A stretch of DNA of 64,000 nucleotides from Candidatus Kerfeldbacteria bacterium RIFCSPLOWO2_02_FULL_42_19 (GTDB lineage Bacteria > Patescibacteriota > Patescibacteriia > HO2-48-17). The stretch covers positions 17,148 to 81,147 of the forward strand of contig MHKF01000006.1 of the NCBI GenBank assembly GCA_001818315.1. Direction: 5' to 3'. The notes under the pieces are model-generated. The model was not told the DNA's origin and searched no databases. It saw only the letters and a program-made list of their open reading frames with translations. The position numbers and the translations under genes are program-made. Below, one piece after another: positions 7,479 to 57,669 of this stretch; position 1 is the stretch's first letter; every line of letters begins with the position of its first letter.

Positions 7479-7680
7479 ATTTCGGTGACCTCACATTCCC
7501 CATGAGGCTGTCGCCGAATGTTATTTCTTGTGCAATGCGCATAGAAAAAGAGGAAGAAGACTCTCGCTTTCGAAGCACTGACAGTGCACAGTGTGCTGAG
7601 AAAGGAGAGTATTTTTCCTCTTTTTCTATGATCAAAAGCATGTTTCACGGATGAAAGCGCATTCGGCGACAGCCCACTCA
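7479..7680. repeat. Structured intergenic element A: outer 15-bp inverted repeats (GGCTGTCGCCGAATG / CATTCGGCGACAGCC) enclosing a hairpin with a conserved 38-nt loop. It is homologous to the element at 23213-23341.
   Basis: The region 7546-7675 aligns with 23213-23341. The loop CTTTCGAAGCACTGACAGTGCACAGTG(T/G)GCTGAGAAAG is identical except for 1 nt. The stem arms differ in sequence but each pairs with its own partner. The 3' flank, ...ATGATCA.AA..GT.TTTCAC..GAAAG(C/T)GCATTCGGCGA, is also conserved. Confidence 0.6.
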
Positions 7681-9279: not shown

Positions 9280-9353
9280 GTCCCCGTAGCTCAAATGGAA
9301 AGAGCAACTCCCTTCTAAGGAGTAGGTTGCATGTTCGATTCATGCCGGGGACG
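9280..9353 (+). tRNA. tRNA-Arg(TCT)
   Basis: A manual cloverleaf gives acceptor GTCCCCG/CGGGGAC, D arm GCTC-AAATGGAAA-GAGC, anticodon arm ACTCC-CTTCTAA-GGAGT (anticodon TCT), T arm GCATG-TTCGATT-CATGC, and discriminator G. CCA is not encoded. Confidence 0.7.
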
Positions 9354-9384
9354 CCGCAAAACATATGCTATACTTACTTTTGAT

Positions 9385-9456
9385 GGTGGCCATGGTGTAG
9401 TGGTAACACGCGGGGCTGTGGACCCCTCATCGAGGGTTCAATTCCCTCTGGTCACC
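9385..9456 (+). tRNA. tRNA-His(GTG) with an encoded G-1
   Basis: G-1 at 9385 pairs with discriminator C. The acceptor is GTGGCCA/TGGTCAC with one G-U. The D arm is GTGT...ACAC. The anticodon loop is CTGTGGA (GTG). The T arm is GAGGG-TTCAATT-CCCTC. The anticodon stem has one mismatch, so this should be confirmed with tRNAscan-SE. Confidence 0.55.
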
Positions 9457-9480
9457 CACACATACGTTTCCAAATCTCTC

Positions 9481-10938
9481 ATGAGTACACGATTGCAATC
9501 GAATATACTTTTCCAGGCATTGCCACAAGCGGTGCAAGAGGTATTGTTCAAGTTGAAAGGGGCCGGTTTTGAAGGTTTTATAGTAGGCGGTTGTTTACGC
9601 GATCTTATACTTGAGCGAGCTGTACGAGATTGGGATGTGACAACGAACGCAACACCAACCGAAATTCAAAAAATCTTCCCAAAAAGTTTTTACGCAAATG
9701 CTTTTGGGACCGTCACAGTACAAAGCGACGGAATGGAAATCGAAGTGACCACATACAGATCAGAAACAAAGTATTCAGACAAACGACATCCTGATGCAGT
9801 GCAGTTTGGCGTAACTCTTGAAGATGATTTGCAACGCCGAGATTTTACTATGAACGCCATTGCGAGCGATGGCGCAATATTGCACGATCCCTTTCAAGGC
9901 AGTAAAGATATTCAGAAACGTTTGATCCGCGCAGTTGGGAACCCAAAAGAAAGATTTGAAGAAGATGCCTTGCGGATGTTGCGCGCCATTCGATTTGCTG
10001 CTGAGTTACACATGCGCATCGAATCACATACATGGTCAGCAATCCTCTCCGATGTTCGGCTGATTGATTATCTGTCAAAAGAAAGAGTGCGAGATGAAAT
10101 AATGAAGATAGTTGCGAGTGATGATCCGTTGTGCGGTTTTTGGTTACTCATGACTTCCGGTGCATTGCAACGCATCATCCCTGAACTTCTCAAAGGCGAA
10201 AATGTCAGTCAAAATAAGCATCACATATATACTGTACTGTTTCATAATCTTTTTTCCATGGCCCATTGTCCTTCAGACGATCCTCTTGTGCGTTTAGCGG
10301 CACTGTTGCACGATGTGGGAAAGCCGCACACAAAACAAGGCGAAGGCACGGAGGCCACATTTTATCAGCATGAAATTGTTGGTGCGACGATGACAAGAAA
10401 AATCATGCGCAGACTAACTTTTTCAAACGCAGCTATAGAGCGAGTTTGCCATCTTGTGCGTCATCACATGTTTTATTACAACATTGGAGAAATCACAGAT
10501 GCAGGAGTGCGGAGATTTATTCGTCGCGTTGGAAAAGAAAACATCTCTGACCTCTTTGCGGTAAGGATTGGGGATCGCATGGGTTCAGGGGTCCAAAAAG
10601 ATAAACCTTTTAAACTCATCGAATTGGAAAAACGCATCGAAGAAGTACAAAAAGATCCCATTGATACGCGCATGCTTGCTCTTGATGGAAACGACGTCAT
10701 GCGTATTGCGAAGCTTGCGCCAGGAAGGACGATCGGCATACTACTGTATACGTTACTCGAAGAAGTTTTGGAAGATCCGACGAGGAATAACAGCGAGTAT
10801 CTGGAACAAAGAATACAAGCTTTGGCAGGAGAAGCGAAACAAGGGATATTGCCAATACCTCGTATTATGAAAGAGGATCAAAAACAGCGCGAAGAAAGAC
10901 TGACAGGAGGTCAAAAGTATAAACGAGTCACTGAATGA
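9481..10938 (+). CDS. cca: CCA-adding enzyme (class II tRNA nucleotidyltransferase with an HD domain)
   Basis: The head domain carries GGCLRDLILERAVRDWDVTT (the GGxxRD...DxD motif). The HD domain carries LAALLHDVGKP and a later HxxxxH. The ORF-track start at 9331 reads through the two tRNA genes. The start at MSTRLQ (9481) is preferred. Confidence 0.8.
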   Translation: MSTRLQSNILFQALPQAVQEVLFKLKGAGFEGFIVGGCLRDLILERAVRDWDVTTNATPTEIQKIFPKSFYANAFGTVTVQSDGMEIEVTTYRSETKYSDKRHPDAVQFGVTLEDDLQRRDFTMNAIASDGAILHDPFQGSKDIQKRLIRAVGNPKERFEEDALRMLRAIRFAAELHMRIESHTWSAILSDVRLIDYLSKERVRDEIMKIVASDDPLCGFWLLMTSGALQRIIPELLKGENVSQNKHHIYTVLFHNLFSMAHCPSDDPLVRLAALLHDVGKPHTKQGEGTEATFYQHEIVGATMTRKIMRRLTFSNAAIERVCHLVRHHMFYYNIGEITDAGVRRFIRRVGKENISDLFAVRIGDRMGSGVQKDKPFKLIELEKRIEEVQKDPIDTRMLALDGNDVMRIAKLAPGRTIGILLYTLLEEVLEDPTRNNSEYLEQRIQALAGEAKQGILPIPRIMKEDQKQREERLTGGQKYKRVTE

Positions 10939-10949
10939 TGTTTTGCCGG

Positions 10950-11035
10950 GTGAGGAAGAGGATGTATATTTTTTCAAATGCGTTGTGATAGGCAACTTTA
11001 CTGCATAAAAAGAAAAGTGTGCACTATAGTGCAAA
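10950..11035. repeat. Palindromic-element family copy 1: left arm plus core only, partial
   Basis: GAGGAAGAGGATGTATATTTTTTCAAATGCGTTGTGATAGGCAACTTTACTGCATAAAAAGAAAAGTGTGCACTATAGTGC is about 85% identical to the left half of copy 2 (12004-12085). No right arm was found. Confidence 0.5.
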
Positions 11036-11063
11036 AAGTCTAGAGCCTATCTCAAAAATAGCT

Positions 11064-11987
11064 CTAATGTTTACTATGATACCGCTTGTATACATCACGA
11101 AGGCGTTGATTGGTAATGTGCGTATATATTTGCGTCGTCGTAATGGAAGCGTGTCCAAGCATTGTTTGCACAGCACGAATATCAGCGCCGTTGAGAAGGA
11201 GGTCAGTAGCATAACTATGTCGAAGGGTGTGTGGAGTAATAGGTTTGGTAAGACCGGCAGCTCGAGCGTATTTTTGTATAAGTCTTTGTATGGAACGCGG
11301 CGTCAGCGGGACCGCGGTTCCTTGTCGTTTTTCAGCAAAGTCGTGACGCACAAAAAGATACGGAGACATATCTCTGCGGATGCGTATGTAGCGTCCAATC
11401 CACGCGCGAGCTATTTCAGATAAAAAAACTAATCGCAATTTTCCACCCTTGCCACGCACGGTAAATTCTTCTTTCGAAAGATTCACGTCATTCATCTTCA
11501 GACGAGAAAGTTCCGATACGCGTAACCCAGTAGAAAAGAAAACTTCTAAAATTGCTTTATCGCGCATTTTGAGAATCTCGCGCATTTTGAGTTTGAGCGG
11601 CGCATCAAGAAGTCGTGCGAGTTCGTTTCCTTCGAGAAAACTCACTTGACGATCGGGGAGCCTGCCGAGTTCGATTTTTTCTGATGCAAGTGTTGCGATA
11701 TCCTGTTTTGCAAGCCACTTAAGGAAACTCCGTAAAGCAATGAGGTGATAATTTTGGGTCGTAGTACGCAGAGGTTCAGAAGTTTTTGGATCGACAATGC
11801 GGTGGAGCCACAAACGGTATTTGTGCACCAGAGGAGCAGTAATATGATTGGGTTTTGAAATTCCTGCCCACCGTACAAATTTATGCAGCGAATAATCGTA
11901 GTTACGAATCGTCAGAGCGGAACGATTTTTTTCAACTTCAAGATATTCAAGAAATTGCGTAATGAGTTCTAAAAGTTGTGATTTCAT
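11064..11987 (-). CDS. Tyrosine site-specific recombinase, XerC/XerD-like
   Basis: The C-terminal catalytic region is HTLRHSYATDLLLNGADIRAVQTMLGHASITTTQIYTH, matching the R...HxxR...Y signature. The N-terminal SAM-like domain has the typical Xer N-terminus LLELITQFLEYLEVEKNRSALTIRNY. Confidence 0.8.
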   Translation of the reverse strand: MKSQLLELITQFLEYLEVEKNRSALTIRNYDYSLHKFVRWAGISKPNHITAPLVHKYRLWLHRIVDPKTSEPLRTTTQNYHLIALRSFLKWLAKQDIATLASEKIELGRLPDRQVSFLEGNELARLLDAPLKLKMREILKMRDKAILEVFFSTGLRVSELSRLKMNDVNLSKEEFTVRGKGGKLRLVFLSEIARAWIGRYIRIRRDMSPYLFVRHDFAEKRQGTAVPLTPRSIQRLIQKYARAAGLTKPITPHTLRHSYATDLLLNGADIRAVQTMLGHASITTTQIYTHITNQRLRDVYKRYHSKH

Positions 11988-12003
11988 ACTTGTACAAGAA
12001 TAT

Positions 12004-12159
12004 CGAGGAAGGAGGAGTATATATTTTCTTCAAATGTGTTGTGATAGGCAACTTTACTACATACAGAGGAAAGTGTGCACTGTAGTCACTCTTTCAAATA
12101 CAAATCGTCCATGTTTGGATATCACCGCATTTGAAAAAATATATGCTCCTCCTTCCTCG
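12004..12159. repeat. Palindromic-element family copy 2: 156 bp with 33-bp terminal inverted repeats
   Basis: IR-L CGAGGAAGGAGGAGTATATATTTTCTTCAAATG (12004-12036) matches the reverse complement of IR-R CATTTGAAAAAATATATGCTCCTCCTTCCTCG (12128-12159) at 31 of 33 positions. The core TGTTGTGATAGGCAACTTTACTACAT...GGATATCACCG is shared with copy 1. Confidence 0.6.
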
Positions 12160-12199
12160 TCTTCGATGGCAGAATAAAAAGATTTCGAAGACAGAGTAC

Positions 12200-13075
12200 T
12201 TAAATAATGTGCAAAATTTCTTTTACTTTTTCAGAGATAGCATGAGTATCGAGATTTGCTTTGATCAGATAATCAGCCGCTCCAAGTTCACGGGCGCGAT
12301 TTCGAAAACTCTCTTGGTCGAAATTCGAAATGATAATAGTAGGGATAGAATGAAATTGTTCGGATTTACGGAGTTGTTCCATAACCTCAAAACCGTCCAT
12401 ATCAGGGAGTCGGATATCGAGTAAAATAATATCCGGCATCCAACGCTGAATTTTTGGCAATACACTTTCGCCATCAATGACAATCTCGACATCAAATCCA
12501 TCACGGAAGAGTTGCATATATGCCAAATCAGAGAGCATTTTATCGTCTTCTACAAGAAGCACTTTCTTTTTTTCTCTCATCGGTATAGCAGCGTGTTGGT
12601 CGTCAATAGATTCGAGATCAGAACCAATATTGCGACCCGAATCATCAAAAGCATGTCGGTTCTGAGGTGTATCTGTTTCTTTGAGACATGCTCTTACTTT
12701 ACTGAGAACCTCTTGTGGCGAAAACTCCGCCTTGATGAGATAATCACAAATACCAAAGGCAAGGAAACGCTCGAGTTCCACAGGTTGCCCAGAATTAGAA
12801 ATAATGAGCACTGGCAAATCCTGAGTATATTCATGGGCACGTAAATGCTCCATAACTTGATATCCATCTTTTTTTGGCAATCGGATGTCTAATAGTAAAA
12901 GATCGGGTTTGCGCTGTTGAATTTTCATTAAACCCGCAACACCATCTGGCGCAATATCAACTTCATAGCCGACACTCATCAATTTTTTTCGAATGATATC
13001 GGCTAAGATCGGCTCATCTTCAACAATCAGAATGTAAAATGGACTATGAGTGGAATTTTGTTTTTCTGAATTCAT
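12200..13075 (-). CDS. Response regulator with two tandem receiver domains (REC-REC) and no output domain
   Basis: REC1 is ILIVEDEPILADII...LLLLDIRLPKKDGYQV...LIISNSG. REC2 is VLLVEDDKMLSDL...IILLDIRLPDMDGFEV...TIIISNF. The ORF-track start at 13213 would read through repeat copy 3. The start at 13075 (MNSEKQ...) is preferred. Confidence 0.75.
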   Translation of the reverse strand: MNSEKQNSTHSPFYILIVEDEPILADIIRKKLMSVGYEVDIAPDGVAGLMKIQQRKPDLLLLDIRLPKKDGYQVMEHLRAHEYTQDLPVLIISNSGQPVELERFLAFGICDYLIKAEFSPQEVLSKVRACLKETDTPQNRHAFDDSGRNIGSDLESIDDQHAAIPMREKKKVLLVEDDKMLSDLAYMQLFRDGFDVEIVIDGESVLPKIQRWMPDIILLDIRLPDMDGFEVMEQLRKSEQFHSIPTIIISNFDQESFRNRARELGAADYLIKANLDTHAISEKVKEILHII

Positions 13076-13104
13076 AAGAGAGCGGAAACAATAATGTGGA
13101 GATA

Positions 13105-13262
13105 GATCATAAGGGGGAGCGATATATTTCTTTGAATGCGATGTGATAGGAAGGTATAACGTACACCGAGGAAATTGAGCACAGAAGAAATTTGCTGCAA
13201 TATAAGGGTTCATCTCTGGAGATCACCACATTCAAAAAATATATCGCTCCCCCTTATGATCT
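13105..13262. repeat. Palindromic-element family copy 3: 158 bp with 34-bp terminal inverted repeats
   Basis: IR-L GATCATAAGGGGGAGCGATATATTTCTTTGAATG (13105-13138) pairs with IR-R CATTCAAAAAATATATCGCTCCCCCTTATGATC (13230-13262). The inner arm TATAT.TTTYTTYRAATG and the TGTGATAGG...GATCACC core are shared with copy 2. The outer arm differs (GGGGGAGCGA versus GGAAGGAGGAG) but pairs with its own partner. Confidence 0.6.
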
Positions 13263-13304
13263 GATTTCAGAATTATTTAAAGCATCTGACTATATCATAC
13301 CAAA

Positions 13305-15026
13305 TTATCGTATACCTTGAAATTCTTGAAATTGAGCATAAGAAGGAAGGCGAATAAAAAATGTTGTTCCTTTGCCTTCTTCACTGGTAAAAGAAATAGA
13401 ACCTCGGTGTTCTTCCAAAACATTTTTGGCAATAAAAAGTCCGAGTCCCGACCCCTCAGTTTGCAAACGGACGACATTTTCCGCACGAAAAAATTTGCTA
13501 AAAATATAACGTTGTTGCGATTGCGGTACGCCGACACCGGTGTCTTGGATAGCGCAAGTGAGGAAATTTTCTTTTGCATCATAATTCAATTGAATACGTA
13601 TCATGCCCCCGGATTTAGTATAGCGAATGGCATTATCAATCAGATTTTGAAATACCATACGTAATTTAGATTCATCCGCATAAATCGATGGAAGTTTCAC
13701 AGGAGGAATATCAAGTACAAGCTGCAAGTTGCTTTCCTTCAGAGCATGATCGAATTCTTGTACAATTTTTCGTAAAAAATCATCCAACGCTATTTTTTTA
13801 AATTCGTACCGGAAACGTCCCTCCTCAATTCGCGAGGCATCTAAAAGATCATTAACGAGATTGATCATGCGTTGATTACTCACAAAACCTTTTTCAAGCA
13901 TCTCATATTGCGATTCGTTTAATTTTCCGAGATCTCCATCGCGTACCATCTGCAGAGCCCATTTAATTGCAGTCAAGGGAGTACGCAATTGATGCGCTGC
14001 GACAGAAATAAATTCAGATTTTAGTTTATCAACAAGTTTTTCACGAGTAATATCGTGGATAATGATCATTTTACCGATGAACTCGCCATACAGATCCTGT
14101 ACTGGGAGCGGTGTGACTTCAAAAGAACGCTCGCGATTTTTTTCACCGAGAACATATTCAAAAGATGGCAGAGCTGATACATGAAGTTCGGTATATTTTT
14201 GTTGGGCCGGAGTGAAAAGGAGGGTGTGCAAGCGCTGCAATGCAGGTTCGGGGTTTTCATGTGGATCAAAACTATGCTGCAAAACATCTTGCGTGCGGAC
14301 ACCTACAATCGCTTCTGCTGCCGGATTCATAAAAAGCAACCGATTCGAAGGATCAAGTAAAATGATGCCATCAGGAAGATCGTGAATAATGGAGTCGATA
14401 CGGTGGCGTTCGGAAAAAATTTGCTCTTCTCGCCGTCGAATCATCGCTCCAATAAATGCGCCAAAGACAGCAACGGCCGTAATCCAAAGCACAGTTGCAA
14501 TAGCATTAAGAACCGTCGCTTCTGCATTTCCATACACACCAAGAGTAGCTTCGGTATAGCGAGGAAAATGTGGCAATATATGTAAATGTTCGAGGGTATA
14601 CAATAGCAATAGCCATAGGTCACTACCGAGGGCAAATAAAACTACCGCACGAGCAGAAAAGGCGGTAATAGTAAAAAAAGTTATGAAATGAAAGAGATGT
14701 ACTGCTACGCTTTCAATGCCTCCAGTAATACTCACAGCAATGGTCAGGAAAAATTGAACAAGGAGGACATTCAGTGTGAGTAAGATGCGAAGCGTGGAAG
14801 TCGGAAGTTGATGTCGTTTAAGAAAAAAGAGCGAATTAATGATGTTACTCGCACCAGTAAGCAGCAACACTATGATCATGTATTCTAGCGTCTGTGGAAA
14901 AATAGTGAGGGAAAATCCACGAATAAAAAACATTACAAGAATGACAACAACGATAATAAGCCACATGCCGTATATCAGCCATGTAAGAGGTGCAAGGAGT
15001 TTTTCGCGTTCGAATTCATTCGTCAT
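13305..15026 (-). CDS. Sensor histidine kinase (multi-TM N-terminus, PAS, HisKA, HATPase_c)
   Basis: There are six or more N-terminal TM helices. The PAS-like region is IIHDLPDGIILLD. The H-box is ISVAAHQLRTPLTAIKWAL and the N-box is LIDNAIRYTKSGG. The G-boxes are DTGVGVP and GSGLGLFIAKNVLEEHRGSI. Confidence 0.8.
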   Translation of the reverse strand: MTNEFEREKLLAPLTWLIYGMWLIIVVVILVMFFIRGFSLTIFPQTLEYMIIVLLLTGASNIINSLFFLKRHQLPTSTLRILLTLNVLLVQFFLTIAVSITGGIESVAVHLFHFITFFTITAFSARAVVLFALGSDLWLLLLYTLEHLHILPHFPRYTEATLGVYGNAEATVLNAIATVLWITAVAVFGAFIGAMIRRREEQIFSERHRIDSIIHDLPDGIILLDPSNRLLFMNPAAEAIVGVRTQDVLQHSFDPHENPEPALQRLHTLLFTPAQQKYTELHVSALPSFEYVLGEKNRERSFEVTPLPVQDLYGEFIGKMIIIHDITREKLVDKLKSEFISVAAHQLRTPLTAIKWALQMVRDGDLGKLNESQYEMLEKGFVSNQRMINLVNDLLDASRIEEGRFRYEFKKIALDDFLRKIVQEFDHALKESNLQLVLDIPPVKLPSIYADESKLRMVFQNLIDNAIRYTKSGGMIRIQLNYDAKENFLTCAIQDTGVGVPQSQQRYIFSKFFRAENVVRLQTEGSGLGLFIAKNVLEEHRGSISFTSEEGKGTTFFIRLPSYAQFQEFQGIR

Positions 15027-22538: not shown

Positions 22539-23213
22539 ATGAGTTTATATATTGTGCCGACACCCATTGGAAATCTTGCAGACATCACGCTGCGTGCATT
22601 GGAAATACTCAAAAGTGCTGATCTGATTGTTTGCGAAGATACACGACACACAAGCATTTTACTCAAGCACTATAATATTCAGAAACCAACAGAAAGTTAT
22701 CATCAACATTCAAGCGCAGCAAAAGAAAAATTACTCCTCGAAAAACTGAAAGCAGGGCATCATCTTGCTCTGGTGAGTGATGCAGGAACCCCGGGAGTAA
22801 GCGATCCAGGACAAAAACTCGTCCAAAAGGCAATCGAAGTCGGCATCGAAGTTATTCCATTACCAGGGCCATCTGCTTTGATTACAGCAGTTTCTGGAGC
22901 AGGAATCCCTCTCTCTCGTTTTGTGTTTCTCGGTTTTATACCACACAAGAAAGGAAGAAATAAGCTTTTCGAATACATTGCCGCTTCGGAATTGCCTTGT
23001 GTGGTATATGAATCGCCGCACCGGATTCAAAAAACTTTACAACAATTTGTAGGTATCCTTACAAAGGATCGGAAGATGATAGTCGCGAAAGATATCAGTA
23101 AACGTTATGAGCGTTTTATACGCGGTACTGCGGACAGTATTTTGAAGGAAATCAACGCGATGGAAAAAGTTGTGGGCGAGTTTGTCATCATTATAGATCG
23201 TAAAAGTAAATAA
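22539..23213 (+). CDS. rsmI: 16S rRNA (cytidine1402-2'-O)-methyltransferase RsmI
   Basis: The N-terminus is LYIVPTPIGNLADITLRALEILKSADLIVCEDTRHT, a canonical RsmI tetrapyrrole-methylase fold. Confidence 0.85.
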   Translation: MSLYIVPTPIGNLADITLRALEILKSADLIVCEDTRHTSILLKHYNIQKPTESYHQHSSAAKEKLLLEKLKAGHHLALVSDAGTPGVSDPGQKLVQKAIEVGIEVIPLPGPSALITAVSGAGIPLSRFVFLGFIPHKKGRNKLFEYIAASELPCVVYESPHRIQKTLQQFVGILTKDRKMIVAKDISKRYERFIRGTADSILKEINAMEKVVGEFVIIIDRKSK

Positions 23214-23341
23214 AAAGGAGGAGATTATAGCTTTCGAAGCACTGACAGTGCACAGTGGGCTGAGAAAGCTATAATCTCCTCCTTTTCTTCTATGATCACA
23301 ATGTATTTTTCACAAGCGAAAGTGCATTCGGCGATAACCCC
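23213..23341. repeat. Structured element B: A-tract, perfect 19-bp stem (AAAAGGAGGAGATTATAGC / GCTATAATCTCCTCCTTTT) with a 36-nt conserved loop, then T-tract. The 3' flank encodes the last 15 codons of comM.
   Basis: It lies between the convergent rsmI and comM genes, like a bidirectional intrinsic terminator but with an unusually large loop. The loop and 3' flank are homologous to element A (7546-7675). Confidence 0.6.
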
Positions 23342-24876
23342 ATTCTTTTTTCCGCGACTTCACGAACACGATACTGCAAAGCTTCCTGCAGATGTTGTGC
23401 ATGTACTTCTGATTTTTGTTCAATATCAGCAATCGTTCGCGCCACTTTCATGATACGAACGATACTGCGAGGAGAAAGTGAATAATGCGTCATGGCTTTT
23501 TGCAGAATATTTTGGCATTGATTGTTTAAAGATAAAAAATTGCGCAGATTTTTACTTGGAATTTCGCTGTTTGTAAAACAACCAATCGAGGACAAACGAT
23601 TTTGTTGAATTATGCGGGCAGTAGCAACCTGTTCACGCAAGGTTGGAGTGAAAGTATTTTTTTGGGTTGAATGAAAAAATTCCGTGGGTGTCAGACGAGG
23701 GATTTCAATATGCATATCGATACGGTCAAGAAAAGGACCAGAAAGTTTTTTTTCATACCGTGTAATTTCTTGAGGTGAACAAGTGCAATCCACTTGTGTA
23801 TCAAAACGAAAGCCACAAGGACACGGATTCTGTGCAGCTATCAGCATCATGCATGCAGGAAAAACAAGGGAATTACGGATTCGGCTGAGGCGTATGCTAT
23901 ATGATTCGAGCGGCTCGCGTAGTGATTCCAAAACTGATCGACGGAATTCCGGAAGTTCATCCAAAAAGAGTACGCCTCGGTGCGCAAGAGAAATTTCTCC
24001 TGGTTTCGGAGACGCACCGCCTCCAACAATGCTCGCATACGAAGCAGTATGATGTGGAGCACGAAAGGGTCGCGTCGTAATAATGGGTTGTGATTCTGTC
24101 AAAAGTCCTGCAATACTATATAATTCAGTGACTTCAACGATTTCCTTTTCGGACATCGGTGGCAGAATTGCCGGGACGCTTTGCGCAAGAAGTGTTTTTC
24201 CGGCGCCAGGAGGGCCGGTGAGGAGAATGTTATGTCCTCCAGCAGCAGCAAGCGTAAGCGCTCGTTTTGCAAAAACGTGACCGCGAATATCATCAAAATT
24301 CGTTTGAGGTGTGACCTGTTTTAGGGTGTTTGTAGAAGTTGTAGGCGAGGAAAAGCTGGATAGTGTGTAGTTTCCAGTAAGAAAATCAAGCACTTGTTTG
24401 AGATGTCGAATCGGATAGAGAGTCAAACCGCTGATAAGCGCTGATTCATGAGCGTCTTTCTCAGGAAGAATCAAGTGAGTGATACGAGAGCGTTTTGCGA
24501 TATTTGCCAATACAATAGCTCCTTGAATAGAACGAATCGTGCCATCAAGTGCAAGCTCTCCAAGAAAAAGATAATTTTTAGGTATCTGTATTTCAGGATG
24601 ATGCACAGCAAAGATACCAACAGCAATAGCAAGATCGTATAACGCTCCTTCTTTTTTGATAGAGGCCGGTGCGAGATTCACAGTAATACGCATGGGCGCA
24701 AAACGACAACCCACATTTTTTAAAGCTGCTCTCACGCGCTCTTTAGCTTCTTGTACTGCAGTATCCGGTAGTCCAACAATTGTACAACTGGGTAACCCGG
24801 CGGAAAGATCGACCTCCACTTCTATCAGTGTGCCAGCAAGTCCGATGCGAGCCACTGAATAAACTGTTTTCATCAT
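23296..24876 (-). CDS. comM: YifB/ComM-family Mg-chelatase-like AAA+ ATPase
   Basis: It has a Lon-like N-terminal domain. The AAA+ Walker A is NILLTGPPGAGKTLLAQ, and the arginine-finger region is ...VLFLDELPEF... A ChlI-type C-terminal domain follows. Confidence 0.85.
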   Translation of the reverse strand: MMKTVYSVARIGLAGTLIEVEVDLSAGLPSCTIVGLPDTAVQEAKERVRAALKNVGCRFAPMRITVNLAPASIKKEGALYDLAIAVGIFAVHHPEIQIPKNYLFLGELALDGTIRSIQGAIVLANIAKRSRITHLILPEKDAHESALISGLTLYPIRHLKQVLDFLTGNYTLSSFSSPTTSTNTLKQVTPQTNFDDIRGHVFAKRALTLAAAGGHNILLTGPPGAGKTLLAQSVPAILPPMSEKEIVEVTELYSIAGLLTESQPIITTRPFRAPHHTASYASIVGGGASPKPGEISLAHRGVLFLDELPEFRRSVLESLREPLESYSIRLSRIRNSLVFPACMMLIAAQNPCPCGFRFDTQVDCTCSPQEITRYEKKLSGPFLDRIDMHIEIPRLTPTEFFHSTQKNTFTPTLREQVATARIIQQNRLSSIGCFTNSEIPSKNLRNFLSLNNQCQNILQKAMTHYSLSPRSIVRIMKVARTIADIEQKSEVHAQHLQEALQYRVREVAEKRMGLSPNALSLVKNTL

Positions 24877-35027: not shown

Positions 35028-38000
35028 ATGCAAGTAAACGATGCAAGAAAAAACAAAAAATACACTCGCGCTCACTTAGGCTGGAAGAAGATGCTTTTCA
35101 TGTCGGTATTTACATTGGGAGTCTTGCTACAAAGTTTTATGATAGCAAGACCTGTCTTCGCCCAGGGTTTCATTGGTGACCCATTTTTTGATCCGCACGG
35201 GTTTACTCCTGCCGAAGAAATTAACTATACTGCTGTCGAACCACCGGGAGGAGGTCTTCCAGTAGCAGTGACAGTGGACACTCCTGGGTTCTTCCGAAGA
35301 ATCATGGATAAGATTGCGACGATAGCAAAAACAATATATGAAAAAGCTGGACGCGCCGCAGTGAAGGGCATGATCAGGGTAGTCTTGACGAAAGTTGCGT
35401 ATGAGACGGCTGTGTGGATCGCTTCGGGAGACAATAAGCAGAAACCGTTGCTTTTTACAAGTCAATGGGATGAATATCTGGAAGATGCTGGTGACGCAGC
35501 ATTAGGTGAGGCGTTCCAAACACTCGCCATGAAAAATGGATATCTACGATTCAATGTCTGTGATCCTTTTGATAATCGTGTGAACCTCGCGATTCAGTTG
35601 GGATTAGATTTTGCTACCGGTAGGCCGCAAAAACCGCAGTGTACTTTTAAAGAAATGCGCGAACGCTGGTCCGAAGTGAGAGATGATCCAGCAGCACAAA
35701 AGAAATTCCTTAGTAATTTCAAAGTCTCTTGGGACATTGAGCAAAATGACATCGGTCAATTTTTATCATTGCAAACAACGTTCCTTGCAACTCAGGCACA
35801 AAAAGAAAAATCAGCACAATTGCAAAGACAGGCATCCGATCCCTTTAAAGACGTGACTGGAAAAATTTCGCAGTTCATCGAAACGCCAGCACAAGTCGTT
35901 GCAGGAGTACAAAAGGACGCATTTGAAAAATCTTCCAATGAATTCTTGGTACTTGTAGGTGACCCAGCAGCGGATGCGCTTGGTGTTTTTACAAGCACAT
36001 TGATGTCAAAACTTTTAGCTCGCATCAAAGGTGGAGTGTATAGCTTTGGAGATCTTGTCAGAGAAGATTACCGTAATGAACAAGGCGGTTTCGTCGATGC
36101 AACTGCGTTTGCTCCTGCTGGAGGTGGATCGGGGCTCTTTAATCCATCGGGTGCTTCGGCTCCAGGAGTCGCCGCAGCCGAAGCGCATTACGCAAGTATT
36201 GCGGATATCAGCTTTTCAAGTGGCGACGAATTTCAGGTGCTCGCGGATCTCGTCGCGTGTCCATCCGAAGGCGCGCAAGCGATTAACTGTACGATCGACG
36301 AAAAATTTCGCATCGCGATTAACGACCGACTTACGGTGCGTGAAGCGCTCGATCAAAAACTTTTAGATGGTAAGAAACCGTTTGGGTTTGGAACGCAGGG
36401 ACAGCCGATTCCCAATGTGCGTGATGGATATTCATATCGCAGCGTCATTGTGCTCCAACGCTATCTCATCGTACCGGTTGGTTGGAAGATCGCCGCGGAA
36501 TACATCCGTGATTTTAATCCCGGAAATTTCACTTTAACTGATCTTGTATCAGCGTATGATAAATGCGGTCCAGATAATTACTCTCCTTTCTGCGGACTCG
36601 TTGATCCTGATTGGGTTCTGAAAGCGCCGGCAAACTATTGTCGTAAGCAAGGTTTCGGCAATCCAGTCGCAAAAGGTGAATACGTCGATCAGGATGGGAA
36701 TCCAGCAACACCGAGAAAGCCTTTTATCGTCCGGCAAGAAATCTGCGTGGACGACCAATCGTGTATTCAGGAAAATCCAGACGGCACATGTCGCGCGTAT
36801 GGATACTGCACGGAACAAAAGCGCATCTGGCGATTCGTTGGAGAACGCTGCGAGCCAGCCTATAACACTTGCCGCACGCTGACAGATACCGCAACAGGGC
36901 AACGCGCGTCCTTGCTTTTGAACACTGTAAACTTTAATGATTGTAGTCGTGATGTAGCCGGTTGTCAGTGGCTGTGTCAAGTATTTAATCCATTAGATAA
37001 CGACTGGCAGTGCGCTGGCAACGGGGTCGTCTATCCGACGTGCGACGCTGCACATGATCCGGATGGCGATGGCAACTGCGATGGAACCACAGGAGGGGCA
37101 ACATGCGCAACAAATCCGTGTGCAATAGAATCAGGCCGTTTTCGTTGTCAGAATACAGACGATGAGATATGTTACCTGAATCCAGAAAGCGATAATCCTC
37201 GGGAGTTTAACGACGCAAGTATCAGTTTAGACCGTGATGCGCCGAACTGTGACAGTAAAAATGCCGGCTGCGAAAAGTTTATCAGCACTCGTAATGGCAC
37301 GAATCTCATCAATAACCCGAGTTTCGAATACTTTGCCGATAATCCATTAGACCCACAGCCGTTGACATTCTCATCAGAAGGTGCGGGCGATGTTTTAAAT
37401 GACAACGACGCCGATGTGTTTGGATTTTGCGATGGTCGCGGTGGAGACACACACGCGTGCGATGATGATAGTGATTGCGCTGGTGAATGCGTCGGCTGGC
37501 AATCATTCGGAGCGCCCATTGTGCTCGGCGTTTCCGATCCTGTGGCGCGTGGACAAGTTGCAGTGAAATTTGTGGGTACTAATGATGCAGAAGCAGACAC
37601 ACTCATGTACGAATACGAAAGTAATACCGAACTTGCGAATCGTTCGTTTGACTTGAGTTTTCGTTACCGAAAAACAGGAGGAGGAGGAGCTTGTACAGTA
37701 AAATTGAAATATAACACCGATCAAGATTCAGATATTGCCACTAAAACTTTAGCAGTCAATGAAAGTTGGACAGAAGAAAAATGGAGCACAGATCAACTCA
37801 TAACACTTCCAAATACTCGGCAATGTTATGGTGGAAATGACGGGAGTCCTTGTACGAGAAACAGTGAGTGCGGCGGCGGGGTCTGCCGCAGCGATACTTC
37901 ACTGGAGATTCGTATTGGTGTCGAACCGGCAGGGTGCGAACTCTTGATCGACGAAGTAAAACTTGAAGAAATCAAACCTCTTAATTTCGAAAGTGCAACC

Positions 38001-41000
38001 GCCACAGCAGCATATTCGGAATATGCGAGTATCAACACAATACATCTCAATGGGCAGCGTTTGAGTTGCGAACCAAAAGATCTTGGTTGCGAGGCATATA
38101 CGGATGTCAAAGACAAAAGCGTTATTCCGGCAGTGATCACGAATCCAGTTTCAGAACTTTGTACCCAAGGGGTTAATAAAGATTACTCCAAAGCAAGTTG
38201 TAATCAGTGTGATCAAGGGCAAGTCGGGTGCGATTTCTATGAGGAAGTGCCGCTTAAGAATCAACCGCCAGATCCACTCGCGCCCGAAAGAACTGGTTTT
38301 TACTGTTCCAATTATCCAAATAGTGAAGCGCGAAGTTGCACCCCAGCATATTGCGACAATAATCCAAGTATTCTCTGTGATCCAACCGCTGATATTAATA
38401 CCCTTCGTGTCGTATGTGGACATAGTAATCCGACATGTGTGAACTCCGCGCCAGCGCAGTGCGGCGATCCAAGTGCAACATGTTTGCCACAAGTTTCGAT
38501 CATCCCGAAAACCGGTAAAAAATGTCGCGCTCAATACGTAGGCTGTGAAGAATACACGAATCTCGACATCGTAGGACAAGGCGGTGAAGGTTTGGAATAC
38601 TATAATCGTATCAAACAATGCGTTAAACCTGTTGATGGCGATCCGACGCAAGGCACGTACTACACTTGGGTCGGTTCAGAGACCGCTGGATATCAACTCA
38701 AAGCATTCAAACTCAAAAAGAGTAATATTACAGATCATAGCTTTTGCCCGGGTAATCAACAGATTTGTGATGTGAATGACATGATTAATGAAACAGGGAC
38801 AGCGCCTTGTACGCAACTTGATGTTGGTGATACTGCGAATCCAAACGCTGATTGCCAAGATACGATACAAGGTGATCCCGCAACATGTATAGAAGCAGAT
38901 CTTGAGACGAATCCAGACTGCGGACAATTCTACGATAGCGGTGGAAATATTTTCTACCGTTTGCGTTCGCGAGTGATTAGCGTTTCTGAAGAATGCAATC
39001 CCTTGCGCAGCACGATTGATAACAACGTTTACTACGCGATTCGATCACAGAGTAAAGTATGTCCCGCGCAAATGAACGGCTGCCGAGAATATAAAGGCAG
39101 CGCAGGGAACAACGTGCGCATACTCCTCCAAGAGAATTTCGAAAATACTACTTTTGAGGGAGCAGGGCTGAGCAATGAAGGCGCGATCGCCGGTTTCGGC
39201 GACCAGTCGATGGAGATTCGCATGGAAAATAACACAGATCCCAATGAAGGCTTTACTGATATACCGCAAACGCTCCTTACCAAAGGCAACGCCTACATCG
39301 TTTCGTTCTGGGCACGCAGCGGCACAAGTTCTGAAACAAATACACTCACAGTCAGCGCGATCTTCCGCAAGAAAGATGGCAGTGGCGTTCTCGAATTCGG
39401 CGAAACAACCCTCGAGCCGACGAATGACTGGAATTTGTACCGACTCGGTCCACTTGTTTTTGATCGCGAAGTTACCGATCAAGAAGTCTTTGCAATTCGC
39501 CTTAATCCACAAGACGCCAGTTACCCAAAGAGTCTTCAAATCGATAACCTCAAAATCACCGACAGCACGAGTCAATACCTGATTAAAGGCAGCGCGGCTA
39601 TTTGTCCAAAATTTGAAGGCTGTCGGGAATACTCAGATAGACAAGGCCGCACGAATTATCTCAAGTCGTTCACGCGGCTGTGTGAGCAGCGTTTCCTCGG
39701 CTGCGAAATTGCACTTGATACGCAGAATTCAAATCTCCCATTTGCTCAAAGTTTTAACTTAAACAACCCTGAAAAAGATCCGCAAGGTAAAGATGACGTT
39801 ATTGTTCCAGCGGATCAAGCGACACTTGTCGTAAATAATCCGAATAACTTTTGTTTTGCGACGGCTGAAGGTTGTAGCGCGCTCGGCTCCCCGAACGAAA
39901 ATAAGCAAGAAAACAAAATCGACGGATTTAGTACGACATATCGGATTAAAGATCCGGATAATTACGGTACGACATTGTGTCAGGATCATCAGATCATGTG
40001 TCGCGAATACCAATACGGAGAGACTCAATATTATTTCAAAGACCCCGGCAATAAGGCCTGTGAATATAGAATCGTGGGGCAGGATTTTAGTCCATCCGCA
40101 CCGAGTAACGATATATACGGCTGGGCAAAATTTGGTAAAGACGAAGGCTGTCCATTATTCAATCCATATGATTTTCCATCACGACCAAGCGGTTCCGTGT
40201 GTGCCGCGGGCGATCGTGTAGGTCAGCCGTGTCAACGAGACAGCGAATGTCCGGTAAGTTTCTGCACGAGCGATATTGCAGATGATCCAACAACACCAAA
40301 TACTGACGAAAGTCGCGGTTGGGTAGGTGCGTGTCCCGAAAGCGCTGATTCGTGCACATTGTATCTGGATACCTACGGCACGAATCCACGTGACGAAGAA
40401 ATTTTGAATTCAAGTTTCGAAACCGATGTACGTAATAACGCAACAGGAGAATACACTCCCGACAATATTCCTGATGATTGGCATCTCACCGCCTGCAGTG
40501 ACGGAACTTGCACGATCGCACGTGAAACCGGTCAGATTCGTAGCGGCGAAGCAAGTCTCAAAATCGAAGGAGGAGTAGGCAATCCAACCTTTACCATCGC
40601 AAGTGAACCCATGCGTGTGGATTCCAACGATATTTATACCCTGCGTGGCTATGTCCGGAAAAATTTCAATGGCATATTTGATCTTGGTCTCGCTTTCTTC
40701 GATCGTGATGGCAATCTCATAAGCGAAAATCCATTTATTGCTGCAAAACAAGAAGCGCTTACCGATCTGTCAGAAAAATGGGTTGCCTTTCAAGGAACGA
40801 TTGGTCCAACACAAAAAGGACCCGAACTCGCATTGGTGGAGTTCCCGCAAGATACTTTGGAAGTCAAGATTCTCATTGGTGGTACGACCGGTAGTGGCGG
40901 CATTTTTGTCGATGATGTTTCGTTCGATCACAACGACGAATATTATTATCTCGAAAACAGCGTCGACACCAAAAGCTGTCGAGGAAACGCAAATCGGGAT

Positions 41001-44000
41001 GATGGATGTGTAGTTTTGAATAACGTCACACAAAGTACACAAAATTATCGGGCTGATGATCCACGCACGCCGTTCGATGAATCAAAGTCTATCACGAGAA
41101 CCGAAGGCTACGACCCCGCGATTGCGAGTTGCGAACTCAATAGCATCGATGAAAGTAACACATGCCGCTGGAAACCAAACGCAGGAGTCGGAAATCAGGT
41201 GATTAAGGTGCGTCCAGATCGCGATTGCAAAGAATGGCTCGCCTGTTCGAGCGCCTACGCCGTAGAAAATCCGGACACTCGAGCGAAAGATTACTACTGC
41301 TTCGATGTTGGTCGCTGTCGTAATCTCTCAGAGGACGGTGTGTGCAATGACTGGGTTTACAAACCCGACCGCTACGAACTGACTGAAGAAAATATGACCG
41401 AAGTCAATTCGGCGCCGGGAGACACCGAAGAGCTTGAAAAAATACAGAATCTTACTGGGTACGTAAAAGCAGGTCTCAAAGCAGTCGTACCAAATCCACA
41501 AGGTGGGAGTTCACCAGCTCGTATCAAAGGATATTATACTTTCGACGCGATGCCGCAGGTAGGAATCTCTGGTAGGAATTCTTCACGTGACATTGTGTAC
41601 AGTGGAAGATTCGAAAACACATTCTGCGCTCAAGGGAGTATCGGCGCGTCTTGCACACTCGATCAACACTGTCGTAGAGTCGATCCGGCAACAGGGCAAC
41701 TTACAGATACAGAACCTGGAGCTTGCGTCAATCCACCCCGCGGTTGGTCAAAAACTGGCGGAGAAGGCAACAGCATTCAGGTGATTGATTTTGATGAGAC
41801 GATCGCACTGCCGTATGAAACCGCCCCAGAAACGATTCAAGTAGATTTACCTAATGTCTTGAAGGTCGTACCAAGTGGGGAACAAAGTAACGGTGCACAG
41901 TTGATGTTGCAGGATGATCTCATTCAACCCAATGGAGAGTATGTTCTTTCTTTTGACGGGCGCTATTTTACCGCGCCGACAGATGACGACACGTTGCGCA
42001 TTGGATTTTCCTATAACACAACCTGCAATGAAACAAGTTGCACGCGGGATAAAGTAGACATGTTCTCCGACGTGTGTCGTGGCGGAGTTCGTGACGGCCT
42101 TTTCTGCGACATCAACGCAGGTCAAAAACGATGCGCGGGTGGAGATAATAACGGCGATGAATGTAGCGCCGAAATAGATTGTCCAAACGGAACCTGCACC
42201 GCAAAAGTATGCATCAATGCAGGAGGAAACACGGGCCAGTCCTGTCTGGATGTGGACATTTGCCGTGTAGGACTCCCAATAGAGGAAGTAGGATTAGCGC
42301 GCTGCGGTGTGCCCTCCAACTGTCCTGATGGCGAATGTGTCCAAGATGCATTCAAAATGACTGGACAGATGCAACGCTATACTCTTGGCCCCGTCATGGT
42401 AAGTAATAAACCAACGGTGAAAGAACTTCGGTGTTCGAATGACATCAATAGTAGTTGCGTCAACGATGATGACTGTTCGGAAGATGGCATTTGTATCGAG
42501 CTTTCCACAACATTACTCTTCTTTGAACAAAGAGCAGCGAGTGCAAACACACCTTTCTTAATAGATAATGTTTCCTTGAAACCAGTACTGGAAGTGAGTA
42601 AAATTGTTGGTCTCGTTTCGCGCAACTGCCGAAGTTATCCGCGAGAAAATGCTCTCGGTTGCGATTACTTAGACATTAACCGTATTACCTATCGCGGATG
42701 GTATGGTTATTGTCTGGAATATGACCCATTGAATAAAAATCAGTGTTTGGTCTGGTGGCCAGTAGATGTAATCGGTGGAGAATCATCGCTCGCACCGCGT
42801 GTTCGAGCGGGTTACAGCGAACGCACACCTCTGTACATGTGTGTGGCCTCCAGCGGAACGCGTATTCGGGACACAAAGTATTGTGTGAATCATGACAATC
42901 CTGAATATGCCGGCAAAGTCTGTGAGTTGGATAATCAGTGCGGCGGGGGTCGATGTATTACTATGCAGGATACTGGCGAATACTCTCTCTTCCCAAAAGA
43001 TTATACATTCAAAGCAGCATATGATAATAATGGAAAACTTTTTTGCGGTAATACACACTCGCAGGTTTTTGCGTGTACAAGCAGTGTATTAACAGAACAA
43101 CAAGCGATTTTGGAAGATATTGTAGATCGAAAAGTCTGTGTCACACAAACCGAATGTACAACGGACTCTGAATGCGCTGTACAGGTACCGGAAACAGGAC
43201 ACATAACCTATACAAAATGCCTCGATGGCTTTTGTGTTGATACGCGGACATGCGAAAATGATGGTGATTGTCCGAATTCGAGTACCTGCGAACCCTGGTA
43301 TGATGATACGGTACCTGAAGATGAAATTATCATCCCCGGATATTGCGCCGGAAATATGTTTCGGCCGTGTAATATTCGTAATGAAATGAGCGGCGATGCC
43401 ACTAATTCGGATTGTTTTCTATCGGTCGGTGAATTCGGTGAAGAATGTATTCCAGATTTTGATATACCAGAGACCAGAGTGGAAGGAAAAGTGCGAGTAG
43501 CCATTCCTGAATGCGATGAAGATAACCTTCCGGGCGACGACGTGACTATAGTTGATTGGGGTCCATGTATTCCGTCGATTTGTGACTATATGGGTGGCGT
43601 ATGTGCTTCAGAACCAGAGAGTAGTGCAGGACTCCCAACGTATGGTGCTGTGTGTTTTAACGATCCAAGTTTGAGTTGCGGCGACGGTGTCAATTGTCCT
43701 GCAGACGCAGGAAGCTGTGTGTTCTCAACAACCACACGTTGGCAATGTGTTGGTGGAGCGAACGAGGGACTACCATGTACGCAGCACGGTGACTGTGACA
43801 GTAACCTCTGCTCAATGTGGCTACCACGTTTCGATGGCGTAACTGGCAGACTCTATAATTTCGCTGCTCAACTCGAACAGATCCCAGGCTATGCTGATAT
43901 TCAACACGTTATATTTGACACATTTGTTGCTGGTCAGGTTCAACCGAAAGATACTATTATTATTCCTGTAGGATACGTCACAGACCCTGGTTGTAATCAA

Positions 44001-45779: not shown

Positions 45780-45791
45780 TCCGAAACATAT

Positions 45792-51304: not shown

Positions 51305-51334
51305 GAATAGGCGAAGAAATGGTATAATAAATGT

Positions 51335-51784: not shown

Positions 51785-51789
51785 AAAAC

Positions 51790-52473: not shown

Positions 52474-52475
52474 AT

Positions 52476-54311: not shown

Positions 54312-54322
54312 TGAATTAAGGT

Positions 54323-54928: not shown

Positions 54929-54945
54929 GAGTATAGATAATTATT

Positions 54946-55680: not shown

Positions 55681-55688
55681 TTAAATTT

Positions 55689-57665: not shown

Positions 57666-57669
57666 GTCT

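Follow-up and report, generated by a model that had tools for sequence, protein, structure and literature searches.

In one Candidatus Kerfeldbacteria strain (MAG contig MHKC01000012.1), three successive spacers of the HK-REC-Xer cluster hold copies of an imperfect palindrome, which we call family A, and comparison with relatives shows that they are lineage-specific insertions. We place about even weight on the reading that family A is a small family of non-coding, MITE/ERIC/Correia-like palindromes co-transcribed with the operon. Since nothing ties the elements to the neighbouring recombinase, they look like an ordinary MITE/ERIC-type repeat in an unusual host.

Within the window, the whole 64-kb stretch of DNA that was analysed, a profile of copies 2 and 3 matches the + strand at three places and nowhere else (nhmmer), and self-BLAST of the window returns the same three copies and nothing more. 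Together with inspection of the sequence, these searches bear out the repeat family described in the initial annotation. Copy 2 (positions 12004–12159, 156 bp; nhmmer match 12000–12163, E = 6e-46) is a complete imperfect palindrome in the REC-Xer spacer. Copy 3 (13104–13262, 159 bp; nhmmer match 13101–13265, E = 3e-45) is likewise complete and is located in the HK-REC spacer. The two score 174.5 and 177.8 bits, respectively, against the covariance model. Copy 1 (10950–11035) had been called a left-half copy, and it indeed matches only profile positions 13–89 (10953–11030, E = 1e-10); it consists of the outer arm GAGGAAGAGGATG, the inner arm, and the core's left part, without a right arm. All copies are on the + strand and intergenic. 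Copy 1 lies between the convergent genes for the CCA-adding enzyme and Xer. The gene for Xer, a XerA-type tyrosine recombinase (11064–11987, − strand; Pfam PF00589 and PF02899), is outside the elements and separates copies 1 and 2, whose orientation is direct, as first reported. Copy 2 ends 16 nt upstream of the Xer start codon. Copy 3 ends 26 nt upstream of the start codon of the gene for the 292-residue REC-REC response regulator (12200–13078, − strand), and this start codon is shared with the orthologue from the closest relative, L128. Copy 1 is 88% identical to positions 12005–12086 of copy 2 over 82 nt (BLAST). The homology begins at the outer arm (GAGGAAG-AGGATG versus GAGGAAGGAGGAG), and the flanks outside it are unrelated. 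Because copy 1 has the outer arm of copy 2, the alignment identifies the whole palindrome, including the outer arms, as the copied unit.

The arms of the full copies can be divided into an outer segment, a (TA)n run that forms a TA-rich junction, and an inner segment. The left arm of copy 2 (12004–12045) comprises the outer segment CGAGGAAGGAGGAG, the (TA)n run, and the inner segment TTTTCTTCAAATGTGTTGTGAT, contains a bulged C and a TT bulge, and pairs with the right arm (12121–12159). The left arm of copy 3 (13103–13147) begins with the outer segment AGATCATAAGGGGGAGCG, followed by the (TA)n run and the inner arm, contains the same bulged C and an AT bulge, and pairs with the right arm at 13222–13263. 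The fold and the arm-to-arm alignment yield stems of 39 (copy 2) and 41 (copy 3) pairs, which makes the arms longer than the 33–34 bp originally assigned to them, and the inverted repeat of copy 3 extends weakly out to 13090–13277 in the self-BLAST. The outer arms had been described as self-complementary and different between the copies. The self-complementarity holds, but the arms are homologous after a shift of one nucleotide (AAGGAGGAG versus AAGGGGGAG) and share AAGG(A/G)GGAG. The inner arm is common to the copies, as had been noted, yet contains two compensated pairs (CA/TG versus TG/CA). The core outside the stem is about 65–72% identical between copies 2 and 3.

Folding, proposed as a check in the initial annotation, marks copies 2 and 3 as strongly hairpin-forming on both strands, with z-scores of about −7 to −10 (−7.3 to −10.3; none of 200 shuffled sequences folds as well). 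The RNA fold energies are −67.9 kcal/mol (+ strand) and −59.5 kcal/mol (− strand) for copy 2, and −65.7 and −70.9 kcal/mol for copy 3. The predicted shape is a hairpin with a stem of approximately 40 bp. The z-scores for DNA folding are −9.4 and −8.6, and the fold of copy 1 is no better than those of shuffled sequences (z = −0.3).

The stem has retained its complementarity through sequence change, as initially proposed. The 40 pairs of the long stem compared between copies 2 and 3 comprise 27 that are invariant, 12 changed on both sides, one changed on one side, and none that is broken; five of the 12 double changes are register artefacts of the (TA)n run, so that seven genuine double substitutions remain, and the covariation statistics from two full copies are weak. 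The one-sided change results in a U-G pair. All cells of the long stem are paired, compared to 41–57% when the partners are slid by 1–3 columns. An apical hairpin contains one compensated pair, and a 4-bp apical hairpin is kept in both full copies. The seven genuine double substitutions, next to a single one-sided change and no broken pair, argue that pairing has been actively maintained, and random decay would not produce such a pattern of pair changes. The accompanying claim that the pattern points to selection rather than to a MITE is too strong, since presence or absence at orthologous sites and the truncated copy fit a small mobile repeat. Complementary arms can also be preserved by template switching, or by a transposase with which both ends co-evolve. 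A single template-switching event makes or restores perfect complementarity and thereby mimics compensatory substitution (PMC8794818). Template switching could account for the perfect outer arms of family A, although it is a mutational mechanism and not a class of element. The arms have not simply been homogenised, because the left-arm bulges, including those of the inner arm, are conserved between copies 2 and 3. The two copies are old relative to each other (approximately 70% identity), and their near-perfect stems and common bulges look more constrained than typical MITE remnants.

The compensated stem changes and conserved bulges would also be expected of a structured RNA specific to this locus, a cis-regulatory or small-RNA element of the HK-REC-Xer operon kept by selection, for example for the control of translation or stability of REC-REC and Xer, with the 3′ arm placed 16–26 nt before the start codons. 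The compensated apical pair and retained apical hairpin, the very strong fold z-scores, the single orientation of all copies relative to the genes, and their clustering at one operon, with none in the approximately 80-kb flanks, agree with such a role. We nevertheless consider a locus-specific RNA unlikely: the orthologous spacers of all four relatives lack the elements, Rfam 15 matches only three tRNAs in the window at the gathering score and nothing over the elements even at E ≤ 10, and the covariation comes from only two full copies. Furthermore, both strands fold equally well, and the G-T mismatches give no RNA-strand signal because the strand they favour is + in copy 2 but − in copy 3. 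Equal folding and opposed G-T bias mark a palindrome in DNA rather than a single transcribed strand.

A tandem-duplication artefact of assembly, which would have voided the observation, is excluded because independent assemblies from several samples contain the elements: they are present at 99.85–100% identity in at least six assemblies from ENA, Logan, JGI, and NCBI. The only contig that ends inside copy 2 is a 1734-bp JGI contig (L125).

Four relatives, in which Xer is 69–87% identical, keep the HK-REC-Xer order without the elements, and a search for REC-REC homologues returned the same four and none closer. The closest is L128 (Xer 87%, REC 84% identical), with element-free HK-REC and REC-Xer spacers of 34 and 67 bp. 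The element-free spacers of L165 measure 47 and 20 bp, the HK-REC spacer of L127 has 29 bp, and the REC-Xer spacer of L164 has 4 bp. The relatives' spacers thus range from 4 to 67 bp, save for the unrelated 161-bp HK-REC spacer of L164, which contains three unrelated hairpins and has only CTCCCCCTT in common with copy 3. Searches at E ≤ 1 found no family A element in the relatives' loci (nhmmer on L127 and L128, covariance model on all four); the best covariance-model score among the four is 12.4 bits (E = 0.55, L164). The sites are therefore polymorphic for insertion between orthologous loci, and the conserved gene order in element-free relatives argues for lineage-specific insertions and against cassette boundaries. 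In public gene calls, REC-REC is extended through copy 3 to 337 residues instead of 292, so that one practical effect of the element is to inflate the annotation of this protein. A protein look-up for the 292-residue form, which would flag strains without copy 3, returned no record.

The recombinase encoded between copies 1 and 2 is, judged from its sequence, the conserved single XerA-type housekeeping Xer of CPR bacteria. It passes model NF040815 (230.5 bits, cut-off 220), and XerA is the best passing model; it fails the integron-integrase model TIGR02249 (125.5 versus 265 bits), NF011946 (81.6 versus 435 bits), and the tyrosine-type DNA invertase model (49.5 versus 221 bits). Thousands of homologues are about 60% identical or more. 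The initial suggestion that the elements are substrates of this recombinase or cassette boundaries does not fit a gene order kept in element-free relatives and an Xer that fails the integrase model, and the Xer gene is probably a bystander. We regard it as quite improbable that the CPR XerA-type Xer acts on the elements as structure-specific DNA sites, be they invertible segments or single strands in folded form. In that case, a housekeeping Xer would have a further role, in controlling or rearranging genes locally.

Integron attC sites are imperfect palindromes of 57–141 bp, in which pairing and extrahelical bases outweigh sequence. Family A resembles them in that imperfect palindromes with conserved bulges, and with pairing conserved more than sequence, are placed in direct orientation with genes between them and adjoin a tyrosine recombinase gene. 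Folded single-strand sites for the adjacent Xer, like attC or the attP of CTX phage, would make the intervening genes cassettes or modules, and the conserved bulges would play the part of the attC extrahelical bases. Such sites are very improbable here. The intervening genes are fixed housekeeping genes, syntenic in the element-free relatives. Modules of the pdif or IMEX type would come and go with their flanking sites, whereas the relatives have these genes but lack the sites. No IntI-type integrase is found at the locus, and the recombinase is nothing beyond a plain Xer. The R″/R′ core (RYYYAAC ... GTTRRRY) is absent from the base of the stem, where the sequences are CGAGG/CCTCG and AGATCAT/ATGATCT. 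In attC the R boxes at the stem base are conserved and the interior varies, whereas family A has a conserved interior and a variable base. By inspection of the sequence, no dif-like core of 28–31 bp, with two inverted binding arms of about 11 bp around a 6–8-bp spacer, stands out in the stem; the (TA)n run of each arm is surrounded by symmetry at the purine/pyrimidine level alone.

The invertible promoters of C. difficile and Bacteroides are similar to family A in size and build, and inverted repeats within elements of approximately 155 bp, placed upstream of genes and beside a tyrosine recombinase gene, could be invertons. The outer arms would then be crossover sites at which a tyrosine recombinase flips the interior of approximately 110 bp and alters downstream expression, and the arms would stay complementary since recombination requires identical crossover regions. 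Copy 3 alone contains a promoter-like TTGAAT-17-TATAAC, pointing away from REC-REC. However, promoter-like sites are not conserved among the copies (five were found, compared to 6.4 expected from shuffled sequences), and a promoter element was rejected because there is no consistent site. All independent consensus assemblies have one orientation, the housekeeping Xer scores far below the cut-off for invertases, copy 1 lacks one arm, and the arms are unusually long, with inner ends just about 75 bp apart. The inverton reading is consequently improbable.

No further copy of family A was detected in approximately 80 kb of the same genome around the locus (nhmmer, BLAST, and covariance model). The pattern TGTGATAGGN{18,22}RAAANTGNGCAC gave 27 matches in a metagenome scan, all by chance, and none in viral contigs, where the family B pattern (see below) also had none. 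A loose pattern, RAATGYGNTGTGATAGG, gave at least 120 chance matches in a scan of GTDB genomes, and none of those listed fits the family profile. Six-frame translations of the elements, used as protein queries, returned no gene calls over other copies and equally missed the known 337-residue call. The initial annotation had linked a functional element to both further copies and arms that covary: the flanks, metagenome, and viral contigs yielded no further copies, and the complementarity of the arms through change holds. With three copies within 2.3 kb and none in these other searches, the term dispersed repeat is not established for family A, and a function specific to this locus keeps some probability.

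The elements are, as far as their reading frames indicate, non-coding, with no conserved open reading frame. A coding element was rejected because the frames differ between the copies: the longest open reading frame through copy 2 reads the common right arm in another frame than does that through copy 3, and the frame that is open in copy 2 stops after seven codons in copy 3. The sizes of 156 and 159 bp fall in the MITE range of about 50–500 bp, and the imperfect terminal inverted repeats of about 40 bp are likewise MITE-like. Prokaryotic MITEs are AT-rich and intergenic, have stable stem-loop transcripts, may cluster or insert into one another, and have direct repeats that fade over time (PMC10969869). 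Copy 2 has no target-site duplication, and copy 3 has just a 3-bp GAT on both sides, which would occur by chance about once in 64 cases. About 82 kb of sequence revealed no transposase whose ends match, and no transposase gene was noticed in the gene lists of the loci analysed. Neither full copy ends in an intrinsic terminator, as no T-run follows the hairpin; the sole terminator-like site of family A is a small internal hairpin of copy 1 (11033–11020, − strand) followed by a T-rich tail.

The window contains a second set of palindromes, family B, and a second family of the same build in the genome shows that families of palindromic repeats are a feature of this lineage. In family B the apex is conserved, while the purine-rich stems vary, are self-complementary, have A- and T-runs at their flanks, and are located at convergent gene ends. 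Its copy 1 (7540–7630), a terminator-like palindrome flanked by convergent genes, has a 39-nt conserved apex and its own purine-rich stem, and is nested in a larger inverted repeat (7506–7520 with 7660–7674). Copy 2 of family B (23205–23295) has the same apex and the stem AAAAGGAGGAGATTATAGC, which holds the 9-mer AAGGAGGAG, as in family A copy 2. L128 has a B-like hairpin downstream of its Xer gene. Motifs AAGGAGGAG and TGTGCACTGT are common to both families and otherwise rare in the window, and family B copy 1 scores 34.3 bits against the family A covariance model. Homology of the two families is only marginal, with local alignment z-scores of 2.5–3.2 and 5–9 of 300 shuffled sequences aligning as well.

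The nested palindromes of family B and of the 7506–7674 region, together with the placement of the variable part of family A outside a conserved interior, could mean that the mobile unit is a smaller core (TATAT...ATATA, approximately 125 bp) inserted in the loops of older hairpins, with the outer arms derived from host terminator stems. Pyrimidine-rich tracts are present upstream of REC in the relatives, including CTCCCCCTT in L164, and repeats inserting into one another are known (PMC10969869). A smaller core is quite improbable, since copies 1 and 2, which occupy different loci, have the same outer arm, homology (AAGGRGGAG) also links the outer arms of copies 2 and 3, no such hairpin is present in L128 where its sites are empty, and the window has no element-free, purine-rich long hairpins elsewhere.

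ERIC/IRU elements are non-coding imperfect palindromes of approximately 127–150 bp confined to transcribed intergenic regions. Family A is similar to them in that related genomes differ in whether an orthologous site is occupied, and in its predicted long mRNA hairpins. It differs in having no sequence similarity to them, in its host phylum (CPR/Patescibacteria), and in the three clustered copies known, compared to tens to hundreds of dispersed copies. The Correia elements (CREE) of Neisseria are approximately 105–155 bp long, have long terminal inverted repeats that start with TATA-rich sequence, and are intergenic near gene starts (PMC2649163). Family A shares their size, TATA-rich inverted repeats, and intergenic position near gene starts, whereas CREE number in the hundreds, duplicate a TA target, and have 26-bp ends that are conserved; the outermost 5–7 bp of family A vary between copies, and there is no clear duplication. 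The SPRITE, RUP, and BOX elements of Streptococcus pneumoniae are small palindromic repeats, some terminator-like, that cluster and nest (PMC10969869; PMC3049150). Family B looks SPRITE-like in its position at convergent gene ends. The sequences and host of the pneumococcal repeats are unrelated, and the family A hairpin lacks a T-run.

Under the MITE/ERIC/Correia-like reading, family A would have multiplied locally as DNA, through non-autonomous transposition or through recombination or template-switch copying, in an operon whose orthologues have spacers of 4–67 bp, and would be co-transcribed with it. In the mRNA, each full copy may form a hairpin with a stem of approximately 40 bp and a branched tip directly upstream of the REC-REC and Xer start codons. 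Such a hairpin could be a substrate of an RNase III-type enzyme and a barrier to exonucleases. Correia elements are bound or cleaved by RNase III, which can cut their hairpin transcripts, and change the expression of adjacent genes (PMC2649163). By analogy, family A may provide Correia/ERIC-like punctuation of processing, stability, or termination that uncouples the three cistrons. The pairing would be kept by selection on the hairpin or by template-switch repair of quasi-palindromes.

A literature search on palindromic repeats between genes of Patescibacteria returned no relevant work. Proteobacteria and Firmicutes are well-known hosts of small palindromic repeats, and CPR bacteria have tiny, streamlined genomes. 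The locus described here is a clean case in which occupied sites can be set against empty ones and stem pairing has been actively kept. It may therefore serve as a test case for two questions: whether selection or template switching lies behind "compensatory" change, and in what way hairpin insertions punctuate operons.

The family A elements, imperfect palindromes of about 156 bp, occupy three successive spacers in a run of genes encoding a PAS histidine kinase (HK, 13305–15026, minus strand), a REC-REC response regulator (12200–13078, minus strand), a tyrosine recombinase (Xer, 11064–11987, minus strand), and a convergent CCA-adding enzyme (ending at 10938, plus strand). A search profile made from copies 2 (12004–12159) and 3 (13104–13262) has three matches in the 64-kb window, all on the plus strand. 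Copies 2 and 3 are matched in full (12000–12163, E = 6e-46, and 13101–13265, E = 3e-45), and copy 1 (10950–11035) matches only the left half of the profile (10953–11030, E = 1e-10). Self-BLAST of the window identifies the same three copies: copy 1 is 88% identical to the left half of copy 2, and copies 2 and 3 are 72% identical. The region reads as the initial annotation stated, including the description of copy 1 as a left-half copy only. The elements are present at 99.85–100% identity in contigs from ENA, Logan, JGI, and NCBI, derived from several samples, which rules out an assembly artefact as their origin. The window lies in contig MHKC01000012.1 (GCA_001818755.1), and Candidatus Kerfeldbacteria (Patescibacteria/CPR) are its closest named relatives. 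One matching contig (JGI 3300002529, 1734 bp) terminates within copy 2, at window position 12041, which is consistent with a palindrome or repeat interrupting short-read assembly.

Copies 2 and 3 each fold as a single long hairpin, with energies of −67.9 and −59.5 kcal/mol for the plus and minus strands of copy 2, and −65.7 and −70.9 kcal/mol for those of copy 3. The z-scores range from −7.3 to −10.3 over both strands, no shuffle folds as well, and DNA parameters give the same strong folding. Copy 1, the partner arm of which is absent, has no significant fold. When copies 2 and 3 are aligned, the long stem of 40 pairs contains 27 invariant pairs, one pair altered on one side (U-G), 12 altered on both sides, and none broken. 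Five of the double-sided changes represent a register shift in a (TA)n run, and the other seven are genuine (columns 1, 6, 7, 12, 18, 30, and 31), columns 30 and 31 forming an inner-arm swap of CA/TG to TG/CA. Every cell is paired, compared with 41–57% when the partners are slid by 1–3 columns; the sequence beyond the stem is only about 65–72% identical between the copies. Since unconstrained decay would break many pairs, the absence of broken pairs supports the central proposal of the initial annotation, that complementarity is actively kept, and stem pairing in family A has been maintained through sequence change, as seen in only two full copies. In both copies the left arm has a bulged C and a bulge of two bases, and a pyrimidine mismatch falls at the same position; these shared asymmetries argue that the arms were not simply homogenised. 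The conclusion is limited in that one event of template switching during replication can produce or repair a perfect stem (PMC8794818), and co-evolution of both ends with a transposase would be an alternative way of keeping the arms matched.

The G-T pairs favour the plus strand in copy 2 and the minus strand in copy 3, a pattern that does not point to selection on a single transcribed strand. At the Rfam gathering score, the window contains three tRNAs only, and nothing is found over the family A elements even at E ≤ 10. A locus-specific structured RNA, to which the stable folds could also belong, is an unlikely reading. The elements contain no conserved open reading frame; the frames are not the same from copy to copy, and the one left open in copy 2 is closed by a stop after 7 codons in copy 3. 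Promoter-like sites are no commoner than in shuffles, and none is common to the copies. Neither copy 2 nor copy 3 ends in a hairpin followed by a T-run. There is no clear target duplication, with none at copy 2 and only a 3-bp GAT at copy 3.

The outer arms, which had been described as different, are not unrelated: after a 1-nt shift, CGAGG-AAGGAGGAG-T-(TA)n of copy 2 lines up with AGATCAT-AAGGGGGAG-CG-(TA)n of copy 3. The outer arm of copy 1 is that of copy 2 (GAGGAAG-AGGATG), and the homology between them starts at this arm, with unrelated flanks beyond. Because copies 1 and 2 carry one outer arm at different loci, the unit copied is the whole palindrome. This argues against a smaller core having landed in the loops of pre-existing host hairpins, and the window contains no purine-rich long hairpins elsewhere that lack a family A or B core; we regard such an origin as very improbable.

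The HK-REC-Xer order is kept in four relatives, all of which lack family A (best profile or covariance-model score 12.4 bits, E 0.55, in L164). The HK-REC and REC-Xer spacers measure 34 and 67 bp in L128 (Xer identity 87%), 47 and 20 bp in L165 (69%), and 161 and 4 bp in L164 (71%); in L127 (73%) the HK-REC spacer is 29 bp and an extra gene separates REC from Xer. The REC-REC and Xer start codons are the same in L128 and the window, so copies 3 and 2 were inserted 26 nt and 16 nt, respectively, ahead of genes that had stayed unchanged. Judged by this comparison, the family A elements are lineage-specific insertions. The short ancestral spacers suggest that HK, REC-REC, and Xer are co-transcribed. 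The 161-bp spacer of L164 (808–970) forms three stable hairpins unrelated to family A (z −6.65); its purine/pyrimidine arms include CTCCCCCTT, a 9-mer that also appears in copy 3, as its 3′ outer arm. REC-REC is 337 aa long in public gene calls, residues 1–45 being translated copy 3 (13079–13213, minus strand); the L128 orthologue and the common start codon indicate a true length of 292 aa. The public 535-aa reading frame of the CCA-adding enzyme (9331–10938) overlaps two tRNA genes (9280–9353 and 9386–9456) in its 5′ part, and the enzyme probably starts near 9529, as its Pfam domains begin later.

The Xer protein has thousands of homologues in CPR bacteria at about 60% identity or more, scores 230.5 with the NCBIfam XerA-type model, above the cut-off of 220, and fails integron-integrase and DNA-invertase models. 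By these results, it is the housekeeping single Xer of CPR bacteria. The suggested link between elements and recombinase is not supported, since relatives keep the genes without the elements. The genes between the copies are not cassettes but fixed housekeeping genes, the order of which is kept in those relatives. As R boxes are also absent from the stem bases of family A, attC- or Xer-type folded recombination sites are highly improbable; an inverton is quite improbable. The Xer gene contains an 18-bp-period tandem repeat (11560–11591, unit core TCGCGCATTTTGAG) encoding LKMREILKMRD. One unit is missing from assembly ERZ27254836 (P0001), so that this housekeeping recombinase shows a slippage polymorphism, a deletion of 6 aa (EILKMR).

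A second palindromic family, B, has copies B1 (7540–7630) and B2 (23205–23295), each between convergent genes. Their 39-nt apex, GCTTTCGAAGCACTGACAGTGCACAGTG(T/G)GCTGAGAAAG, is identical, and their stems differ but are self-complementary and purine-rich, with A- and T-runs on the flanks. B1 is nested within a larger inverted repeat (7506–7520 with 7660–7674), and in L128 Xer is closely followed by a B-like hairpin (2229–2287). The rare motifs AAGGAGGAG and TGTGCACTGT occur in both families, and the family A covariance model scores B1 at 34 bits; overall similarity is marginal only. With family B built in the same genome from a shared apex and differing stems, the lineage carries hairpin-repeat families in which the interior is conserved and the stems drift with compensation. 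The right-hand extension of B2 (23296–23340) is 78.6% identical to 7630–7675 and overlaps the final ~15 codons and stop of ORF 23296–24876 (minus strand), the protein of which may derive its C-terminus from the repeat. Elsewhere in the window, a G+C-rich hairpin at 62190–62242 (GGGCGGGGCGGGCA, 25 nt, TGCCCGCCCCGCCC), unusual for a 43% G+C genome, lies near a recG-like ORF (60071–62107, minus strand) and upstream of ORF 62298–63434. There are also two giant ORFs (35028–49670 and 49676–58563; 3583 and 1292 aa); the block that comes after them includes, in the gene lists of locus L160, TraG/TraC-like ATPases, a T4SS pilin, and a DsbA-like protein.

No further family A copies were found elsewhere in the window or in some 18 kb of additional flanking sequence. 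When JGI metagenome contigs were scanned for the motif, the 27 matches were all due to chance; viral contigs gave none, and repeating the homologue search brought up no closer relatives. A GTDB genome scan with a very permissive pattern says little, as its hits (at least 120) were due to chance and none fitted the family A profile. Family A is therefore rare, and in the sequences covered its copies occur in this strain alone, grouped at a single locus. The reading that we prefer, with about as much doubt as confidence, is that family A is a palindromic intergenic repeat of the MITE/ERIC/Correia type. Family A was acquired in this lineage and copied as a whole palindrome; this copying, we infer, was local. 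Co-transcribed with the operon, it would place a very stable transcript hairpin immediately ahead of two start codons. If it behaves like Correia and ERIC elements, the hairpin may uncouple the cistrons by serving in RNase III-type processing or in stability (PMC2649163, PMC2229807, PMC10969869). Family A would thus be an already known kind of element and a new case in an under-studied phylum.
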